Virus record (IMG/VR): IMGVR_UViG_2740892212_000021
Length of the DNA: 20,615 nucleotides
Direction: 5' to 3' (one strand)
Source of the DNA: a virus
Taxonomy: Duplodnaviria > Heunggongvirae > Uroviricota > Caudoviricetes
The first letter of the stretch is position 1; every line of letters starts with the position of its first letter. A program made the translations under genes and the position numbers. This document shows, in pieces, positions 6,140 through 17,382 of the stretch. A model generated the notes under the pieces. That model had not been told where the DNA came from, made no database searches, and saw only the letters and a program-made list of their open reading frames with translations.

Positions 6140-6420
6140 TACGGTTTCCCCCTGCCCTTAAAGCGGCGCTGAATGGCAATCTCAATCACCTGATAACCGG
6201 CGATACCCAGCATGGAGCCGATGCCGCACACCGCAGGCAGTGACAGGTCAGGAAACTGCACCAGAACAACACCGGCAACCATCGAGACAAAACCACCGAG
6301 CAACATGCGCCCGATAAACAGACGCGGGGTGATGGGTTCACCACCGGCAAGCACCTTGCCGACAACAATCAGCACCCCAATCATGAAAAGCGACAGGACG
6401 CTTTTTTCTTCTGCTGTCAT
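6139..6420 (-). CDS. Y: Holin (P2 gpY-like), 93 aa
   Basis: Small protein with transmembrane segments directly upstream of the endolysin; MTAEEKSVLSLFMIGVLIVVGK...; start/stop overlap with K. Confidence 0.85.
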   Translation of the reverse strand: MTAEEKSVLSLFMIGVLIVVGKVLAGGEPITPRLFIGRMLLGGFVSMVAGVVLVQFPDLSLPAVCGIGSMLGIAGYQVIEIAIQRRFKGRGKP

Positions 6421-6423
6421 GCG

Positions 6424-6627
6424 TTACTCCCACAGATTGACAGTTTCAGCCACGGGCGCGGTCTGAACGTCGGGCAGTTCGACGGCGGTGCCATGTGGCA
6501 GCACCGCCCCCAGTTCAGCCAGTCCCGAATTTGCGGCGAGCACGGTCTCAACCACGCCCTCAGTGCGCCCGTAATACCGGACACAAATGGCGTCGAGCGT
6601 GTCGCCCTGTAGCGCAAAGGTCTTCAT
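6424..6627 (-). CDS. X: Tail protein X (P2 gpX-like, LysM-like), 67 aa
   Basis: Internal ATG of track ORF giving MKTFALQGDTLDAICVRYYGRTEGVVETVLAAN...; ATGA overlap with L stop; 67 aa as recalled for P2 X. Confidence 0.82.
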   Translation of the reverse strand: MKTFALQGDTLDAICVRYYGRTEGVVETVLAANSGLAELGAVLPHGTAVELPDVQTAPVAETVNLWE

Positions 6628-10142: not shown

Positions 10143-11915
10143 ATGACCATCACCACAGACACCACTCTTTTACACGACCCGCGTCGTCAGGCGGCGCTGC
10201 TGTACTGGCAGGGGTTTTCCGTGCCGCAGATTGCCGCCATGTTGCAGATGAAACGCCCGACGGTGCAGAGCTGGAAACAGCGCGACGGCTGGGACAACGT
10301 TGCCCCCATCAGCCGTGTCGAAATGAGTCTGGAAGCGCGACTGACCCGGCTCATCATCAAACCGCAGAAAACCGGCGGTGACTTCAAGGAAATTGACCTT
10401 CTGGGACGCCAGATTGAACGACTGGCACGGGTCAACCGTTACAGTCAGACCGGCAACGAGGCAGACCTTAATCCGAACGTCGCTAACCGCAACAAAGGCG
10501 GGCGTCGCAAACCGATAAAGAATTTTTTCAGTGACGAGGCCATCGAAAAGCTGGAGCAGATTTTCTTTGAGCAGTCTTTCGAATATCAGTTGCACTGGTA
10601 TCGCGCCGGGCTTGAGCACCGCATCCGCGATATCCTGAAATCCCGCCAGATTGGCGCGACGTTTTATTTTTCCCGCGAGGCGCTGCTGCGCGCCCTGAAA
10701 ACCGGTCATAACCAGATTTTTCTGTCGGCCAGTAAAACGCAGGCGTATGTGTTCCGCGAATACATCATCGCCTTTGCCCGGCTGGTTGACGTTGACCTGA
10801 CCGGTGACCCGATTGTCCTGGGCAATAACGGCGCAAAACTGATTTTTCTCGGCACCAACTCCAACACCGCACAGAGCCATAACGGTGACCTGTACGTCGA
10901 CGAGATTTTCTGGATCCCGAATTTTCAGGTACTGCGTAAGGTGGCATCAGGTATGGCCTCACAGAGTCACCTGCGCTCGACCTATTTCTCCACCCCGTCC
11001 ACGCTGGCGCACGACGCCTACCCGTTCTGGTCAGGTGAACTGTTCAACCGGGGACGCGCCAGCGCCGCCGAACGTGTGGAAATCGACGTCAGTCATAACG
11101 CCCTTGCCGGAGGTCTTCTCTGTGCGGACGGCCAGTGGCGGCAGATTGTCACCATTGAGGACGCCCTGAAAGGTGGCTGCACACTGTTCGACATTGAGCA
11201 GCTCAAACGTGAAAACAGCGCCGACGATTTTAAAAACCTGTTCATGTGTGAATTTGTTGACGACAAGGCGTCGGTGTTCCCGTTCGAGGAGCTGCAACGC
11301 TGCATGGTCGACACGCTGGAAGAATGGGAAGACTATGCGCCGTTTGCCGCCAATCCGTTCGGCTCCCGTCCGGTATGGATTGGTTACGACCCGTCACACC
11401 GTGGCGACAGCGCCGGATGCGTGGTGCTGGCACCGCCGGTGGTGGCCGGTGGCAAATTCAGAATACTTGAGCGTCACCAGTGGAAAGGCATGGACTTTGC
11501 CACCCAGGCGGAATCCATCCGCAAACTCACCGAAAAATACAACGTCGAATACATCGGTATTGATGCCACCGGCCTCGGTGTCGGCGTGTTCCAGCTCGTG
11601 CGCTCGTTCTATCCCGCCGCGCGCGATATCCGCTACACGCCGGAAATGAAAACCGCAATGGTGCTCAAGGCAAAAGACGTTATTCGCCGTGGCTGTCTGG
11701 AATATGACGTCAGCGCCACCGACATCACCAGCTCGTTTATGGCTATCCGCAAGACCATGACCAGCAGCGGACGCAGCGCCACCTATGAGGCCAGCCGCAG
11801 CGAGGAAGCCAGCCACGCCGACCTCGCCTGGGCGACCATGCACGCTCTGTTAAATGAGCCACTCACCGCCGGTATCAGCACCCCGCTGACATCCACCATT
11901 CTGGAGTTTTACTGA
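10143..11915 (+). CDS. P: Terminase large/ATPase subunit P (P2 gpP-like), 590 aa
   Basis: ATG at 10143 preceded by GAGG at -9..-6; MTITTDTTLLHDPRRQAALLYWQGFSVPQIA... recalled as P2 P; TGATG overlap with Q start; length equals P2 P. Confidence 0.94.
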   Translation: MTITTDTTLLHDPRRQAALLYWQGFSVPQIAAMLQMKRPTVQSWKQRDGWDNVAPISRVEMSLEARLTRLIIKPQKTGGDFKEIDLLGRQIERLARVNRYSQTGNEADLNPNVANRNKGGRRKPIKNFFSDEAIEKLEQIFFEQSFEYQLHWYRAGLEHRIRDILKSRQIGATFYFSREALLRALKTGHNQIFLSASKTQAYVFREYIIAFARLVDVDLTGDPIVLGNNGAKLIFLGTNSNTAQSHNGDLYVDEIFWIPNFQVLRKVASGMASQSHLRSTYFSTPSTLAHDAYPFWSGELFNRGRASAAERVEIDVSHNALAGGLLCADGQWRQIVTIEDALKGGCTLFDIEQLKRENSADDFKNLFMCEFVDDKASVFPFEELQRCMVDTLEEWEDYAPFAANPFGSRPVWIGYDPSHRGDSAGCVVLAPPVVAGGKFRILERHQWKGMDFATQAESIRKLTEKYNVEYIGIDATGLGVGVFQLVRSFYPAARDIRYTPEMKTAMVLKAKDVIRRGCLEYDVSATDITSSFMAIRKTMTSSGRSATYEASRSEEASHADLAWATMHALLNEPLTAGISTPLTSTILEFY

Positions 11916-12949
11916 TGAGCAAGAAAAAAGGGAAAACACCGCAACCTGCGGCAAAAACAATGACCGCCAGCGCCCCGAAAATGGAGGCATTCACCTTTGG
12001 TGATCCGGTGCCGGTACTCGACCGCCGTGACATTCTGGATTATGTCGAGTGCATCAGTAACGGCAGATGGTATGAGCCACCAATCAGCTTTACCGGTCTG
12101 GCAAAAAGCCTGCGTGCTGCCGTGCATCACAGCTCACCGATTTACGTCAAACGCAATATTCTGGCCTCGACATTTATCCCGCATCCGTGGCTTTCCCAGC
12201 AGGATTTCAGCCGCTTTGTGCTGGATTTTCTGGTGTTCGGTAATGCGTTTCTGGAAAAGCGATACAGCACCACCGGTAAGGTCATCAGACTGGAAACCTC
12301 ACCGGCAAAATATACCCGCCGTGGTGTGGAAGAGGATGTTTACTGGTGGGTGCCGTCCTTCAACGAGCCGACAGCCTTCGCACCCGGCTCCGTGTTTCAC
12401 CTGCTGGAGCCGGATATTAATCAGGAGCTGTACGGCCTGCCGGAATATCTCAGCGCCCTTAACTCTGCCTGGCTGAATGAGTCGGCCACGCTGTTCCGCC
12501 GCAAGTATTACGAAAACGGCGCTCATGCCGGATACATCATGTACGTCACCGATGCCGTGCAGGATCGCAACGATATCGAAATGCTTCGCGAAAACATGGT
12601 GAAGTCGAAAGGCCGCAATAACTTTAAAAATCTGTTTCTCTATGCCCCACAGGGGAAAGCCGACGGCATTAAAATTATCCCGCTCAGTGAAGTGGCAACG
12701 AAGGACGATTTTTTTAATATCAAAAAAGCCAGCGCCGCTGACCTGCTGGACGCGCACCGCATCCCCTTTCAGTTGATGGGCGGCAAGCCGGAGAACGTCG
12801 GGTCGCTGGGTGATATTGAGAAAGTGGCAAAGGTCTTTGTCCGCAATGAGCTTATCCCGCTACAGGACAGGATCCGCGAGATAAACGGCTGGCTCGGTCA
12901 GGAGGTCATCCGCTTTAAAAACTACTCACTGGACACTGACAACGGCTGA
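11915..12949 (+). CDS. Q: Portal protein Q (P2 gpQ-like), 344 aa
   Basis: MSKKKGKTPQPAAKTMTASAPKMEAFTFGDPVP... recalled as P2 Q; coupled to P; followed by terminator and cos. Confidence 0.94.
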   Translation: MSKKKGKTPQPAAKTMTASAPKMEAFTFGDPVPVLDRRDILDYVECISNGRWYEPPISFTGLAKSLRAAVHHSSPIYVKRNILASTFIPHPWLSQQDFSRFVLDFLVFGNAFLEKRYSTTGKVIRLETSPAKYTRRGVEEDVYWWVPSFNEPTAFAPGSVFHLLEPDINQELYGLPEYLSALNSAWLNESATLFRRKYYENGAHAGYIMYVTDAVQDRNDIEMLRENMVKSKGRNNFKNLFLYAPQGKADGIKIIPLSEVATKDDFFNIKKASAADLLDAHRIPFQLMGGKPENVGSLGDIEKVAKVFVRNELIPLQDRIREINGWLGQEVIRFKNYSLDTDNG

Positions 12950-13118: not shown

Positions 13119-13137
13119 GTGCTTTCCCCGCCTCGCC
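13119..13137. other. cos site (19-nt cohesive end core of P2-type phages)
   Basis: Plus strand reads GTGCTTTCCCCGCCTCGCC, the reverse complement of GGCGAGGCGGGGAAAGCAC, which I recall as the P2/P4 cohesive end; located just past Q as in the P2 map; coordinates hand-indexed (+/-1). Confidence 0.75.
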
Positions 13138-13355: not shown

Positions 13356-13958
13356 TCACCCCATTTTAACGAGGTGGCTCATTTTTATAGCTGTTACAGA
13401 GTCTTCATAATGAGGCACATCTACAAGAAGAAGTTCTTCATTCCCGGCAAGAGAAACAATGTGCTTTAACAGTAGAGTTTCAATTCTTGATAAATACTCT
13501 GGAACTTTTTTATGAAACCCCAGCGAGTTTTCCCTAACCCGATATGGGTTCCTTACGTGAATATGTTTTGAGCATTCATCATATAGCTTGATAAACTGTT
13601 TTTTCGTCAAAAAACCTCCCGTTAGTTTCGTCCAGCCCGTTTTGGTTACTCCTGATATTGGTACTGGATAAAAGTTAGGGTTTATCTTTTCCAACTCTTT
13701 AAATATATTCTTCGCCTTCCATACACCATCAATCTTCTTTGTAACCTTCTCGTATGCTTTTTCATGTGAAATTAGAGATGAAAATGCAATGAGCTCTAGT
13801 AGCTTCCTAAGCTGCAACGCCTCCATTTCAATTAACACTTGAAAATAAATGCCATCAATCCTTCCAGATGATAAAGCATGAAGTGTTTCAAGTCGCTTTT
13901 GACATTCAAACATTATCTTTAGATATTTTTGTCTTTTTTTCTCATTCATTAATAACAT
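13356..13958 (-). CDS. Hypothetical protein, 200 aa, low-GC cargo gene in the cos-A variable position; candidate anti-phage/exclusion function
   Basis: Intact 200-codon ORF; GC about 30-35% in hand-counted 60-nt lines versus about 55% in flanking phage genes; own terminator; occupies the position of tin/old in P2; no family recognised; Lys/Glu-rich, probably helical, no transmembrane segments. Confidence 0.7.
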   Translation of the reverse strand: MLLMNEKKRQKYLKIMFECQKRLETLHALSSGRIDGIYFQVLIEMEALQLRKLLELIAFSSLISHEKAYEKVTKKIDGVWKAKNIFKELEKINPNFYPVPISGVTKTGWTKLTGGFLTKKQFIKLYDECSKHIHVRNPYRVRENSLGFHKKVPEYLSRIETLLLKHIVSLAGNEELLLVDVPHYEDSVTAIKMSHLVKMG

Positions 13959-14173
13959 GATCTCATCATCATTCTAACGTCATGCAGAAAGCTATATTAG
14001 ACACGTCACCCGAATAAAGCTTCATTACCTAAAAACAAGACCATACCATCAAACATGAGGGGAGGCGTTGAGTTTTTTGTTTTCTCATTGGTTCCAATAC
14101 CACTAACGCCTCGCGATGCTCGTTGTTCAACCCCGCCAGCCCTGAAAACAAGTTTCAAGACTGACGGCGTTTT

Positions 14174-14380
14174 CTATAGTCTGCGTGGCGGTGGAGCAAC
14201 TCTGGACTGACGGATATAATTAAGCCGCCCGTAATTATCCCGGACTATTTCGGCACACCCGACCAGCTCGTCAGGCGTCAGATTTTCGTTGACCATAATC
14301 TGCTGTAGACGGTGAACAATAGCCATCAGCTTGATATTTTTAGTGTTATGTTGCGGTATCTCGCCCGGTATTCTGTGCAT
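14174..14380 (-). CDS. Small hypothetical protein (about 68 aa; 72 aa from the upstream ATG at 14392)
   Basis: ATG overlaps the stop of the upstream ORF (TAATG), suggesting translational coupling; no recognisable motif. Confidence 0.4.
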   Translation of the reverse strand: MHRIPGEIPQHNTKNIKLMAIVHRLQQIMVNENLTPDELVGCAEIVRDNYGRLNYIRQSRVAPPPRRL

Positions 14381-14835
14381 TATCCAAGCCACCCGTTTTG
14401 CTTTGCACGCTCAATCTGTTCATCTGAATAGTTCCATGCTCCATCCGTGGCAACCATTGCCCCGCCAGACATCCCCGTCTCTGGTGCATACATAACAGCA
14501 AGGCCGAGCTGATGCATAATTTCATGATTAATTCTGAATACCAGACCACGCTCACTAAGTTCTTTCCAGTTCACAATCTCATATGCGCCTGTATTAAGCA
14601 GCTCAATACTTAGCAAGACATAATCTTCCAGCCAGTCTGACAGGTCAGTAACATCTGTTATCCGGGCTTCAACCTTTCGCCCCGTATACACACCCTGCGC
14701 CCATTCATGCAAAATCAACGTGTCCCCGCGCTCATAATTACGGTCATTTTTCCGAAACTCTGCGCGTTTCTTTCCTTCCAGCACAAGGTCAAAATATTTT
14801 GCGTGCAGCTTTACCTCGTGAATTTTTGCCATCAT
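14380..14835 (-). CDS. DUF3850/ASCH-like protein with C-terminal HExxH-containing extension (orf91 position of P2), about 151 aa
   Basis: ATGATGA arrangement overlaps the A stop; N-terminal about 85 aa (KIHEVKLHAKYFDLVLEGKKRAEFRKNDRNYERGDTLILHEW) resembles DUF3850/ASCH-like proteins; C-terminal about 65 aa contains HEIMH. Confidence 0.7.
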   Translation of the reverse strand: MMAKIHEVKLHAKYFDLVLEGKKRAEFRKNDRNYERGDTLILHEWAQGVYTGRKVEARITDVTDLSDWLEDYVLLSIELLNTGAYEIVNWKELSERGLVFRINHEIMHQLGLAVMYAPETGMSGGAMVATDGAWNYSDEQIERAKQNGWLG

Positions 14836-17117
14836 GTCCACTCCATTACTGTTGAGAATCCCGGCCACTCATCAGCGACCGGATACGTGAATTTTTTCCC
14901 GTCATAATTTACGGTCGCGCCACGCACCAGCGCCTCAAGCTCCCATCGCTGCGGCCTGATACCGTTCTGAGCAAGGTCAACGCGGATACGGGTGATTTGC
15001 ATTCTTTCCGACCGGGTCAGTCTGGCCGATGGTGCAATTTCATGTGGTTTTAACGGGCTTCCGTTTCTTGGCTGACAATGTGGTGTTCTCAGTCCGTGTT
15101 TTAATGCACCTCTGAGCGCCCTCACAACCTCCGGGTCACTCCATTCGATAACACCGTCATCTACCAGATTAAGCACTGCTGCGGCGTGCTCAGAAGGTGT
15201 GGGAGCCGGTAACGAAGTATCACCACCGTTGAGCTTTCCACAGTTATTGACAGGACTCCGAGGCGCGGCGATGCCGCTTTTTAAAGTCAAAGGCTCAACG
15301 ACCGGAACTTTCGGCACGATGCGCCAGTCCGTCGTTCTGGTGATATGAATATGACGCGCGCCGAGATGCGGCGCGTAAATGCCGACCACTCTCTCGACTT
15401 CTTCCTCGTACTCGTTAACTTCATCCGACGGGCTACGGGCGACCCTGACAGTCTGACAATCGCGCGGGACATTTGCCCCGCCCTGCGCGCTGATATACAA
15501 CGCAAAATCGCCACTGTCTGCGGCGGCGCGTGCAGCCTCCACGCGTTCGTCAAATTCATCAGCAATGCTGACGCCGCGAGGCAATTTACGTAGCTCACGG
15601 TAAGCTCCCATTGTCGGCAGGCCAACCGTTTTAAATTGCGGGATGCGCCACGTTGACGCCCATGCGGTAACAGCCGCCGCAGTATCTTTCAGCGGTCTGC
15701 CGGTATCGTTATCGAGCTGACCATCCAGTGCATAGCCGTCGATATTTTTTGAAATGTATTTCGCGATATATCCCGCAGCACCGCCCCGGTTAAGGTGTTT
15801 TGCCTGAAAACGGTTTCGCGCGGCTCCTCTTTCGTCGCCATCCTCTTTGAGCGCATAGCGACGCATGATTTCGATAATCTGGTTACGCTGGCGTGGATTA
15901 CAAAAAAGCATCATATGCCAGTGCGGCGTTCCGTCGTGGTGTGGCTCGACGACACGCAAACCGTAGACCTGTAAATCATTATCCTTGAATGCCGTGCGCA
16001 TCAGGCTCCAGATACGGCAGAGATAACGCTGCGCATCCTTTGGATTAAATGCCTCATCATTCCAGCCGTGATTAAGCTGGACGGTTTTATTTTCGCCTTT
16101 TCCAACCTGACGTGTCGGGTGATACTTTGACGGCGCGGTAAGCGTGATAAACATCCCCACATCACCCTCTGAGGCGGCGTAACGCTCAATACCGGCAATG
16201 GTGTTCATCAGCTCCATCCGGCGAATTTCAGGATTAGAAATACTGCCCATCACCTTACTGATAAGGTCGATGCGCTCGCCGGTTTCCCTGTTTTCAAGGT
16301 CACACGATTTAAGAAATTCCAGATTTGCCTGGCGGCGCGCACGCACATCACGAATGGCATGTTTACTGGCATAAGGTGAACGGTCTTTATTGACCTCCCC
16401 GACAGCAATCAGTAACGCCTCATGCCAGCGCATACGCTGGCCTTTAAGCTGACTAATCCACCACTCATCGTTAAACAGGCGGGCAATGGCAGAATATGCC
16501 TGCCTCGTGGTCATCTGCCCTTTACGGTATTTTCTCCAGTAAAGCGGGGAAATATTGAAAGCACGTGCAGCGCCAGCAACATGACCATACAGGTGATCCT
16601 GCGCCTCATCCGTAAACAGCGATTCTTTTTCGCCATGCGCATCCACCCAGGCATCGCAGAGTTCCTCATACATCATGAAAAGCTGCGATGAGATTCGGGC
16701 GGCAAACTTTTTCAGCTCCTTGTCATTCATCCCCGGCAGGCGCGCATACTGGTCGCGCTCTGCCAGAAACAGCAACGACGCGTCGGTGTTCATTTCATGG
16801 CGCTGATTCACACGCTCAATGCGCGGCCATAAACGACGCTGAAAAGTGGATGTGAGGAAATAAAACCCGTGCACCGGGCTTTTATTGCGCCGGATGTAGT
16901 CATAGCGTGAAGTAAACAGCGAGCGCAAAAAGTAAGGCAGGCGGTTAATCGTGGATAAAACACCTTGCACCTGACGCATCTCGTCACGTGTAAGGGGTCT
17001 TTCCCGCCCGACGGCCTCGCGTGGCGCGTTCCATGCATAAGCACCGGTAAACGCCTTACCGGTGCCTGCGGCAAATGCTGACGGAGGGACAAAACGCCCG
17101 GAGGCTTTAACGGCCAT
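14832..17117 (-). CDS. A: Replication initiation protein A (rolling-circle initiator, P2 gpA-like), 761 aa
   Basis: Internal ATG at 17117 giving MAVKASGRFVPPSAFAAGTGKAF...; HxH-type Rep motif region (PHWHMMLF); length equals P2 A as recalled. Confidence 0.93.
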   Translation of the reverse strand: MAVKASGRFVPPSAFAAGTGKAFTGAYAWNAPREAVGRERPLTRDEMRQVQGVLSTINRLPYFLRSLFTSRYDYIRRNKSPVHGFYFLTSTFQRRLWPRIERVNQRHEMNTDASLLFLAERDQYARLPGMNDKELKKFAARISSQLFMMYEELCDAWVDAHGEKESLFTDEAQDHLYGHVAGAARAFNISPLYWRKYRKGQMTTRQAYSAIARLFNDEWWISQLKGQRMRWHEALLIAVGEVNKDRSPYASKHAIRDVRARRQANLEFLKSCDLENRETGERIDLISKVMGSISNPEIRRMELMNTIAGIERYAASEGDVGMFITLTAPSKYHPTRQVGKGENKTVQLNHGWNDEAFNPKDAQRYLCRIWSLMRTAFKDNDLQVYGLRVVEPHHDGTPHWHMMLFCNPRQRNQIIEIMRRYALKEDGDERGAARNRFQAKHLNRGGAAGYIAKYISKNIDGYALDGQLDNDTGRPLKDTAAAVTAWASTWRIPQFKTVGLPTMGAYRELRKLPRGVSIADEFDERVEAARAAADSGDFALYISAQGGANVPRDCQTVRVARSPSDEVNEYEEEVERVVGIYAPHLGARHIHITRTTDWRIVPKVPVVEPLTLKSGIAAPRSPVNNCGKLNGGDTSLPAPTPSEHAAAVLNLVDDGVIEWSDPEVVRALRGALKHGLRTPHCQPRNGSPLKPHEIAPSARLTRSERMQITRIRVDLAQNGIRPQRWELEALVRGATVNYDGKKFTYPVADEWPGFSTVMEWT

Positions 17118-17382
17118 ATGAGCCAAAAGCCTCTGAACAACGCCTGCTGAGTTGCTCAACCTGCGCGTTTAAATCAGCAAAAGACTTTGCGCTTCCGGTC
17201 AGAATATCGTGATGCATCAGGCCGGAAACGAGCTGGCTTAATTTCGGGTAATAACCAACCACTGCCAGCCATTCCTGACCGGCGTTTTTACCGCTTTCCG
17301 CTCTCTTTTTCTCGTGGAGAATAAACTGAAAGCTGTCACTGGTAACGACATAACGTTCGCCAATTTCAATACGAATACTCAT
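17107..17382 (-). CDS. Hypothetical early protein (P2 orf83-like position), 91 aa
   Basis: ORF directly upstream of and overlapping the A start; conserved position in the P2 early operon. Confidence 0.6.
   Translation of the reverse strand: MSIRIEIGERYVVTSDSFQFILHEKKRAESGKNAGQEWLAVVGYYPKLSQLVSGLMHHDILTGSAKSFADLNAQVEQLSRRCSEAFGSYGR

Follow-up and report, generated by a model that had tools for sequence, protein, structure and literature searches.

The stretch of viral DNA analysed here, 20,615 nucleotides (nt) in length and referred to below as the window, is a P2-like prophage that is 99.4% identical to Yersinia phage vB_YpM_50. A small open reading frame (ORF) on its minus strand is placed between a gene of the DUF3850 type and the cos site, and the locus comprises the following features, listed in the direction of transcription:

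14380..14835, minus strand: upstream gene of 151 amino acids (aa) with an N-terminal DUF3850/ASCH domain and a C-terminal DUF7415 domain, assigned with Pfam
14389..14394, minus strand: Shine–Dalgarno (SD)-like GGGTGG in the last codons of the upstream gene, ~8 nt before the small-ORF ATG
14378..14382, minus strand: TAATG stop/start overlap, read in the sequence
14174..14380, minus strand: small ORF of 68 codons followed by a TAG stop, sequence and translation read directly
14103..14173, minus strand: conserved 71-nt element (labelled E) directly after the small-ORF stop, ending in GCGTTAG
13356..13958, minus strand: first variable cargo gene, 200 aa, phrog_13799 (function unknown; PHROG E 2e-109)
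13119..13137, minus strand: cos cohesive-end 19-mer GGCGAGGCGGGGAAAGCAC, an exact match where none is expected by chance

The product of the small ORF is MHRIPGEIPQHNTKNIKLMAIVHRLQQIMVNENLTPDELVGCAEIVRDNYGRLNYIRQSRVAPPPRRL, and its reading frame is closed by a TAG at 14176-14174. The upstream gene ends with ...TGG CTT GGA TAA, and its stop codon (14382-14380) shares the A at 14380 with the small-ORF ATG (14380-14378); the shared nucleotide on which an earlier note on this DNA had remarked is hence read directly as TAATG at 14382-14378. A longer product of 72 aa from an upstream ATG had been proposed as well. The ORF listing does include a frame of this length (14174..14392), but its first codon at 14392-14390 is a GTG and not an ATG. 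Since relatives from other lineages share nothing upstream of the MHR with which the protein begins, the ATG at 14380 is the true start.

The size of the ORF is not significant in itself, given that 39 ORFs with a length of 30 aa or more overlap the surrounding 4.5 kb; it is set above chance by its conservation. Across 96 sources, namely 95 related loci and the window, the frame is intact and has an ATG at the homologous position in 89. The ratio of nonsynonymous to synonymous substitution (dN/dS) amounts to 0.096 in the reading frame, whereas the two shifted frames give 1.14 and 2.24; for the core codons 17-50 of the reading frame it drops to 0.055. The comparison of relatives that had been suggested as a check thus finds the frame conserved. 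Judged from this pattern of substitution, the small ORF is a genuine protein-coding gene whose product is under strong purifying selection. It could be argued instead that there is no protein and that the conservation reflects a signal in the DNA or RNA, for example one for termination, recombination or packaging, in view of the structured conserved element that abuts the ORF and of the proximity to cos and to a recombination hotspot. This reading is refuted by a proportion of synonymous differences (pS) of 0.44 against a proportion of nonsynonymous differences (pN) of 0.06 in one frame only, the shifted frames giving ratios >1. Furthermore, no part of the element lies before the stop codon, and homology at the protein level outlasts DNA similarity, which is gone in the Serratia fusion proteins described below that retain 41% identity to the small ORF. 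We regard a non-coding origin of the conservation as extremely improbable. One apparent relative, gp92 of phage Wphi, was rejected as a clean homologue; the Wphi record is frameshifted here, with only 18 codons of the small-ORF-like frame before it is broken, and its annotation divides the DUF3850+DUF7415 gene between gp91 and gp92.

The gene is an ordinary one and already annotated, with entries in RefSeq and PHROGs as well as in a catalogue published for the P2 hotspot. Its protein is 100% identical to RefSeq WP_021519102.1, an annotated CDS in E. coli 2009C-3133, and residues 1-67 align to positions 1-68 of the 69 positions of the phrog_11386 profile (E 2.1e-41). To the same family belong WP_001394634.1 and gp37 of PSP3 (NP_958096.1), the latter with ~81% identity to the window protein over the helical core, and all of these entries are termed ‘hypothetical’. 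The identical protein is listed under the same description among the gpA-gpQ arrangements in Table S5 of Rousset et al. 2022 (PMC9122126). Among 5426 complete E. coli genomes, 387 carry the small ORF, and most of these have a ‘hypothetical protein’ at the site. The expectation that so short a gene would be missed by gene callers holds true for the vB_YpM_50 records and the P2_4A7b record, from which the ORF is absent, but not for the NCBI pipeline, which calls WP_021519102.1. Similarly, the claim that the product has no recognisable motif is correct as far as Pfam, NCBIfam and PADLOC are concerned and fails against the end-to-end match to phrog_11386: searches of Pfam and NCBIfam returned nothing significant (the best Pfam hit, a vinculin-binding site with E 0.019, falls below the cutoff), and no family of the PADLOC defence models matched at E <= 1.

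The upstream gene matches PF12961 (E 3e-18), PF24187 (E 2e-14) and PF04266 (E 4e-11), and its ATG overlaps the stop codon of gpA (ATGA). It is a homologue of P2 orf91, and its relatives are annotated as DUF3850 proteins. P2 orf91 is classically the last gene of the P2 early operon; it is homologous to the upstream gene and not to the small ORF, is devoid of DUF7415, and is followed in P2 by tin and old rather than by the small ORF. Of the 62 sources with a DUF3850 gene upstream, 57 retain the one-base overlap of stop and start, which is a conserved feature of the P2-type lineage. The SD-like GGGTGG is predicted to form a duplex with the anti-SD of 16S rRNA at -5.9 kcal/mol, a value that ~8% of random 20-mers from the window equal or better, and its strength compares with that of the GAGGG in the 186-type lineage. 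The small ORF could accordingly be translated in an SD-driven manner, by coupling, or in both ways. Its layout in the window is one that suits coupling of its translation to that of the DUF3850+DUF7415 gene; since an SD-like site is present, this coupling is an arrangement in the sequence, and a dependence on upstream translation is putative.

The earlier note had surmised that the product might be a small regulator or a partner of the upstream protein. In its strict form, this view has the small protein dedicated to the DUF3850(ASCH)+DUF7415 protein, as partner or regulator, with coupling to keep the two at a constant ratio. The conserved overlap speaks for such a role, as does the detection of both ASCH and DUF7415 upstream of the ORF in 64 of the 96 sources. 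Against it, neither domain is detected in the upstream sequence (up to 5 kb) of 22 sources. In prophages of the 186/PSP3 type, the ORF comes after tumB/dinI and is preceded by a 123-nt leader that provides a GAGGG Shine–Dalgarno sequence of its own. In prophages that are more distantly related, a methyltransferase-like gene or a Toprim primase precedes the homologue. The reverse situation occurs in L-413C, which keeps the DUF3850+DUF7415 gene and only the first ~40 nt of the small ORF, and P2 orf91 comes without both DUF7415 and the ORF. An obligate partnership with the DUF3850 protein is largely refuted by this distribution, and we consider a dedicated partner very unlikely. The small ORF is rather an independent module, expressed in the other lineages from a leader and Shine–Dalgarno sequence of its own. 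The free-standing PSP3-type gene after tumB and the overlapping gene of the window differ in nothing essential.

The map position of the small ORF is fixed by the match to the cos 19-mer GGCGAGGCGGGGAAAGCAC, which we take to be the P2 cohesive end; cosR of P2 is annotated at the equivalent position. The resulting order is A, the orf91-like gene, the small ORF, cargo, cos and Q. Between P2-like phages, homology of the DNA extends only a little past the small ORF, to the GCGTTAG that ends the 71-nt element, and the adjoining cargo stretch 13356..13958 is common only to phages of the vB_YpM_50 type and has no match in Pfam or PADLOC. On this map the small ORF is an accessory gene of the temperate P2/186 phages (Peduoviridae) and, within their early replication operon, the final conserved gene, placed just before the variable defence/cargo hotspot by cos. 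It is evidently dispensable for lytic growth, since P2 and 186 are without it. Early descriptions of the variable region, those of Odegrip et al. in 2006 and Nilsson et al. in 2004, are said to have discussed recombination there. The gpA-gpQ interval is defined as the P2 defence hotspot by Rousset et al. (PMC9122126), and the mechanism by which cassettes are swapped in it was described as unresolved in a 2026 NAR study (PMC13586616).

A gene in such a place might itself be the first cassette of the hotspot and not belong to the replication backbone, with a function in anti-defence or superinfection exclusion or as another lysogenic-conversion ‘moron’. It lies inside the gpA-gpQ interval and is listed there (PMC9122126), it is accessory in the sense of its occurrence in E. 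coli and its absence from P2 and 186, and the 186-type ORF is bracketed by two copies of the 71-nt element. In addition, cargo can sit on either side of the ORF (a homologue of the 13356..13958 gene lies upstream of it in the loci L012 and L086), and the neighbouring orf97 of 186 blocks infection by 186 upon expression from a plasmid, according to a note in the record. Apart from the lack of a PADLOC match, the observations that weigh against a cassette concern how the gene is held in place: unlike true cargo it occupies the same position across genera and replication modules, it is oriented with the early operon and often overlaps or abuts the preceding early gene, and its sequence retains at least 67% identity across the Enterobacteriaceae, which is unusually uniform for a hotspot gene. 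We judge a cassette of this kind to be rather improbable.

The structure of the small-ORF protein was modelled with AlphaFold2, which places helices at residues 10-31 and 36-61 (mean pLDDT 79.5, >90 in the core). The predicted fold is a two-helix hairpin, acidic, with flexible basic ends and a disordered tail. The hairpin includes the invariant motif RLQ..M.NENLTP.ELVGCA..VR. The C-terminal tail, in comparison, varies in length and sequence, with PPRR as its usual end; among 112 distinct tails, 72 have PP..R within the last eight residues and 101 have an arginine within the last four. The possibility that this C-terminus simply results from the DNA element next to it was rejected: the tail codons are not part of the element, and copies of the element elsewhere are preceded by unrelated sequence. 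A Foldseek comparison of the model with the PDB and BFVD yielded no match, and a profile search of PDB sequences yielded a chance-level match alone (E 0.84). Rop/Rom, a 63-aa helical-hairpin dimer that binds RNA, is similar in its architecture of two antiparallel helices of ~22-26 residues. Hairpins are generic, however, and the window protein has no sequence similarity to Rop/Rom and no Foldseek match to any PDB chain.

The closest approach to a function comes from relatives in which the hairpin is joined to a second domain. A profile search of 1.84 billion representatives retrieved 32 clusters only, six of which are fusions of 101-122 aa that carry PF06689 (Pfam E-values from 1e-11 to 6e-19), and ~30 clusters of such fusions are distributed over Serratia, Yersinia, Pectobacterium, Cedecea, Yokenella and Citrobacter. 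A comparison of the small-ORF family profile with the fusion family profile gives an E-value of 2e-22 over 55 columns, and hhalign considers the two homologous with near certainty. The fused domain aligns to the structures of the E. coli ClpX zinc-binding domain (2DS5 and 1OVX; E 7e-16, ~70% identity). All six fusion loci that were examined have the gene on the same strand, after a replication gene (GPA or Toprim primase), either directly or one to two genes downstream of it, and before the portal gene. These ‘ClpX C4-type zinc finger proteins’ (for example P0165 and P0191) therefore agree with the window protein in hairpin domain, strand and map position. They differ from it at the C-terminus: the fusions, of 101-123 aa, end in the PF06689 finger, whereas the window protein has a single cysteine, no PF06689 match and no zinc finger, and ends in the disordered Pro/Arg tail. 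An AlphaFold2 model of a fusion protein shows two separate domains with a linker of low confidence; the model as a whole has low confidence too (pLDDT 60, pTM 0.34) and is informative only as to this separation.

The fusion relatives suggest either a ClpX-linked role or that of a dimeric regulator. The N-terminal zinc-binding domain of ClpX (structures 1OVX and 2DS5-2DS8) docks adaptors and some substrates, and the tail of SspB is one of its docking partners. The window protein has sequence similarity neither to the ClpX N-domain nor to SspB; with no zinc finger of its own, it is tied to ClpX only by way of the domain fusion in its relatives. Its flexible tail with a basic end presumably resembles, in a general way, known ClpX-recognition tails. 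A search of the literature on phage ClpX-finger proteins, ClpX inhibitors and orf91 found nothing relevant. As homologues at the same position carry, after a flexible linker, a ~70%-identical ClpX zinc-binding domain, we tentatively propose that the hairpin is a module for protein–protein interaction or dimerisation that would act early in infection or induction on a step needing the host ClpX unfoldase, for example one at which a factor of replication or induction is turned over or remodelled. This is a possible and by no means a probable reading. The same type of finger is also fused to the helix–turn–helix (HTH) domains of MerR and of excisionase (Xis) in other small proteins, so it may be a mere dimerisation module, and the family would then be one of small dimeric regulators and not a matter of ClpX biology.

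The downstream element is relevant to this second reading. It follows the ORF stop immediately in nearly all loci with 75-94% identity, and some loci have another direct copy, either ~123 nt before the ORF or ~970 nt past it. Within it, a hairpin of ~15 bp occupies 14131-14169, and compensatory changes affect 7 of 19 predicted pairs; frequent G-U pairs render the structure strand-specific. The copy in the window folds at -50.2 kcal/mol (z = -3.9). No Rfam covariance model matched between 13300 and 14900 at E <= 1, and at neither the ORF nor the element did a scan for promoters and terminators return more calls than chance would give. An intrinsic terminator was accordingly rejected: of the G+C-rich hairpin and the U tract after it that define such a site, the hairpin is present, but then comes GGGGUUGAACAACG, and the scan calls no terminator. 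In phage 186 an annotated terminator, t95b, lies ~24 nt beyond the element. The element was likewise rejected as an integron attC site, in which complementary RYYYAAC and GTTRRRY cores bracket a single imperfect hairpin and which goes together with an integron integrase. Only the AAC...GTT is kept, the flanks fit by eye neither the purine/pyrimidine pattern nor each other, each copy shows homology to the others from end to end, which attC sites do not, and the phages are without an integron integrase.

A regulator of this type would be a small dimeric nucleic-acid-binding protein, a Rop-like four-helix bundle whose basic tails contact DNA or RNA; its target might be the 71-nt element after its own stop codon, and the ClpX-type finger would merely strengthen dimerisation. 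Such a protein is compatible with the modelled helical hairpin and its basic tails, the charges being counted from the sequence, and with a generic dimerisation role of the finger as suggested by its occurrence on the MerR and Xis DNA-binding domains. Candidate targets are at hand in the covarying hairpin element after the ORF in nearly every locus of the E. coli or Salmonella type and in the conserved leader of the 186-type gene, which bears a palindrome. The core formed by the helices is acidic on balance, however, and neither Pfam nor Foldseek nor the PDB profile search detects an HTH or another known nucleic-acid-binding signature. Moreover, element and ORF occur apart from each other. The fusion loci in Serratia, Yersinia, Pectobacterium and Citrobacter are without the element, and in loci that lack the ORF, such as that of phage 186, the element follows unrelated genes (tumB, orf97-like). 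We think such a regulator unlikely, though deserving of consideration.

The explanation that we favour overall, and hold to be somewhat better than an even bet, is that the small ORF is an accessory early gene which encodes a hairpin protein and offers a ClpX-linked lead to its function. Phages are known to modulate host proteases by means of small proteins, among them lambda CIII, which acts on FtsH, and T4 PinA and T7 Gp4.5, which act on Lon. These resemble the window protein in size class, early expression, accessory status and the kind of mechanism proposed; they are not homologous to it and have another protease as their target. A bolder version of the ClpX-linked explanation combines the protein with the element, and as a joint proposition we would call it a long shot. 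Here the family would consist of unrecognised phage modulators of ClpX, some members having captured the ClpX N-domain as a decoy or docking module and others, including the window protein, using the short C-terminal Pro/Arg tail; the phage would employ these modulators to remodel a factor of replication or induction, or to protect it. The 71-nt element would be a portable 3' module that, placed after the small ORF, tumB and orf97-like cargo, stabilises transcripts and supplies short homology for cassette swaps in the P2 defence hotspot.

As a sequence feature, the small ORF adds little to what is already annotated. Its position is more informative, in that it marks the point at which the conserved early operon of P2-like phages truly ends and their variable defence hotspot begins, and hotspot surveys that take in the entire gpA-gpQ interval count both the small ORF and the DUF3850 gene as cargo. 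The homology to the ClpX-finger fusions furnishes the family with its first testable functional hypothesis. If this were true, a ClpX-directed factor would be added to the few proteins with which phages manipulate the proteolysis of their hosts.

The DUF3850 gene stops with a TAA at 14382-14380 whose last A is also the first base of the small-ORF ATG (14380-14378), just as the earlier note had described, and from this ATG the frame runs for 68 codons to a TAG at 14176-14174. The same note placed an alternative ATG four codons 5′; a GTG stands there instead. In relatives from other lineages the sequence 5′ of the common Met-His-Arg start is unrelated, which identifies the ATG at 14380 as the start of the gene. 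The comparison drew on phage records, IMG/VR and both complete E. coli and GTDB genomes, which yielded 95 related loci and, counting the window, 96 sources. In 89 of these the frame is uninterrupted and has its ATG at the homologous position; the exceptions are a frameshifted Wphi record, two contigs shifted at the N-terminus, one truncated copy and three distant members whose starts apparently lie at other positions. A comparison of 60 distinct sequences across codons 1-56 yields mean pairwise values of 0.44 for pS and 0.06 for pN, giving a dN/dS of 0.096 that falls to 0.055 over codons 17-50, compared to 1.14 and 2.24 for the other two frames of the same sequences. The small ORF is a real and correctly located gene.

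It is also an ordinary and previously annotated one belonging to a known sequence family. Its product matches phrog_11386 over the full length (E 2e-41), and at megablast sensitivity the small-ORF region turns up in 387 of the 5426 complete E. coli genomes. The suggestion that gene callers would miss it is half right: the gene is not called in the annotations of vB_YpM_50 and P2_4A7b, but E. coli 2009C-3133 has an annotated CDS with 100% identity, WP_021519102.1. Rousset et al. (PMC9122126) include this accession in their Table S5 under ‘DUF3850/ASCH + hypothetical + hypothetical’, where it is one of the ‘hypothetical’ entries. An N-terminally truncated copy in E. coli 4/0 (locus L008, 4071-4226) bears the RefSeq name ‘meiotically up-regulated 80 protein’ (WP_371128002.1), evidently an annotation artefact.

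The region is 99.4% identical to Yersinia phage vB_YpM_50 over 1.6 kb, and many other P2-like phages match part of it at 93-97% identity. The layout of the window corresponds to the classical P2 order A - orf91 - (tin, old) - cos - Q:

Features of the window around the small ORF
14832-17159, minus strand: gpA
14380-14835, minus strand: DUF3850/ASCH+DUF7415 gene, 151 aa
14174-14380, minus strand: small ORF
14173-14103, minus strand: 71-nt element, directly after the small-ORF TAG
13356-13958, minus strand: cargo gene, 200 aa, phrog_13799, function unknown
13119-13137: exact copy of the P2 cos (cohesive-end) 19-mer
11915-12949, opposite direction to the gpA-side genes: portal gene Q

The cos site lies ~170 bp past the end of Q and ~220 bp ahead of the 200-aa cargo gene, which has neither a Pfam nor a PADLOC match. 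Homologues of this cargo protein are found on both sides of the small ORF, 3′ in the window and 5′ in L086 and in an Enterobacter prophage (L012), so cargo insertion is possible on either side. The interval between gpA and gpQ has been described as a hotspot of anti-phage systems (PMC9122126); that the small ORF serves an anti-defence or exclusion role within this hotspot strikes us as quite improbable.

A one-base overlap is present in 57 of the 62 sources with a DUF3850+DUF7415 gene upstream. The P2-type arrangement includes a Shine-Dalgarno-like GGGTGG ~8 nt 5′ of the small-ORF ATG, and prophages of the 186/PSP3 type a GAGGG located 8 nt from the ATG. The predicted strengths of the two sites are -5.9 and -6.0 kcal/mol, respectively, and since the P2-type site is as strong as its counterpart, translational coupling would be plausible without being demanded by the sequence. 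The proposal that the small protein is a partner of the upstream protein does not hold as a rule. Neither an ASCH/DUF3850 nor a DUF7415 domain was detected upstream in 22 of the 96 sources (up to 5 kb examined), and in 186/PSP3-type prophages the small ORF (gp37 of PSP3) follows tumA and the DinI-like tumB, with a conserved 123-nt leader in between. Conversely, L-413C retains the DUF3850+DUF7415 gene together with just the first ~40 nt of the small ORF, and P2 has a shorter orf91 and no small ORF, which is also absent from phage 186. The 123-nt leader, situated between an upstream copy of the 71-nt element and the small ORF, contains in L007 and other loci of this type an inverted repeat (TGTGTTATTGGTTACACA) and a TATAGT hexamer resembling a -10 element; it may be a dedicated and regulated promoter for the small ORF in this lineage. 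The orf91 homologue of the window (14380-14835, minus strand) carries an additional C-terminal DUF7415 domain that P2 orf91 (L096) lacks. In the Wphi record (L002) the orf91 homologue appears as two genes, ‘gp91’ and ‘gp92’, and the small ORF has a frameshift, which suggests that this record contains either sequencing errors or genuine decay.

The 71-nt element that directly follows the small-ORF stop is 75-94% conserved behind the gene in nearly all loci from E. coli, Salmonella and their relatives, and ends in GCGTTAG, past which the phages share nothing. It includes a hairpin of ~15 bp with compensatory changes at 7 of 19 predicted pairs, and its many G-U pairs restrict the structure to the sense strand of the early operon. 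No Rfam family, terminator call or U tract was found for it; in phage 186 (L102, locus 2501-2570) the element has the orf97 stop on one side and the annotated terminator t95b on the other. Besides the window it is present in L007, L056-L062, L072, L080, L083, L087-L095, L102 and, in two copies, PSP3 (L103). Second copies are direct repeats in two arrangements, either right after the tumB/dinI stop and ~123 nt before the small ORF (186/PSP3-type prophages) or after an orf97-like cargo gene ~970 nt downstream (some P2-type prophages). The element stands directly 3′ of the stops of the small ORF, tumB/dinI and the orf97-like cargo, three genes that are unrelated to one another. In alignments, similarity is greater among copies that follow the same gene than among those of one phage; a gene and its copy appear to move together. 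Across 5426 E. coli genomes the element occurs at 577 places in 498 genomes; it is absent from P2 and from the loci encoding the fusion proteins discussed below. It could be a stabiliser of the mRNA 3′ end, a processing site, or a short stretch of homology that anchors recombination when cassettes are exchanged in the P2 hotspot.

AlphaFold2, given 22 aligned sequences, models the small-ORF protein as two helices (residues 10-31 and 36-61) with pLDDT >90 in the core, lower values at both ends and a mean of 79.5; no structural neighbours were found in the PDB or BFVD. Across the family, which has the motif RLQ..M.NENLTP.ELVGCA..VR, L25 and C42 are invariant and Q26, L39, V40 and V46 nearly so. 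C42 (within LVGCA) is the one cysteine conserved throughout the family. Residue counts give a net acidic helical core flanked by basic ends. The C-terminal tail of 13-29 residues is highly variable, with 112 distinct tails of at least seven unrelated types among 149 members; 72 tails have PP..R within the last eight residues and 101 an arginine within the last four. Despite this diversity, most members end in PPRR(R/P). That the downstream DNA element imposes this ending is ruled out, as copies of the element follow other genes with unrelated upstream sequence.

A profile search of 1.84 billion cluster representatives retrieved only 32 clusters, and the family is therefore narrow. Six of the more distant matches are proteins of 101-122 aa in which the hairpin domain precedes a ClpX C4-type zinc finger (PF06689; Pfam E-values 1e-11 to 6e-19, above the gathering score); C42 is invariant in these as well. 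Profile-profile comparison relates the small-ORF and fusion groups with a probability of 99.5% (E 2e-22, 55 columns). Fusion clusters number ~30, in Serratia, Yersinia, Pectobacterium, Cedecea, Yokenella and Citrobacter. All six fusion loci examined are in P2-like prophages. In each, the fusion gene shares the strand of the replication gene and sits between it and the portal gene, either immediately 3′ of the replication gene or at a distance of one to two genes, which is where the small ORF lies on the map as well. Five of the loci have GPA as the replication gene; the Citrobacter locus instead has a Toprim primase, with the fusion gene starting only four bases behind it. A Serratia prophage (L097) has (A)AAATGACTTCA three times as direct repeats at 6372-6440, in the gap separating the fusion gene from the toxin-antitoxin genes hicA and hicB; these repeats are probably the operator of the hicAB promoter.

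The fused finger matches the solved E. coli ClpX N-domain structures 2DS5 and 1OVX (E 7e-16, ~70% identity), and a low-confidence AlphaFold2 model of one fusion protein has two separate domains joined by a low-confidence linker. Adaptors such as SspB, and some substrates, dock on the ClpX N-domain, a dimeric module, and several phage and plasmid replication proteins are ClpX targets. This makes a ClpX-directed role attractive; as the mechanism of the small-ORF family we nevertheless consider it doubtful. The same type of finger is fused to MerR and excisionase-type HTH domains in small metagenomic proteins (P0219, P0238, P0241, P0245, P0246 and P0248), and seems to be a C-terminal module widely reused outside ClpX. 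Its contribution to the fusions may therefore be dimerisation and nothing else, which would favour a small dimeric regulator, a reading we hold to be unlikely. The ClpX-finger fusions are the best handle on the function of the small ORF.
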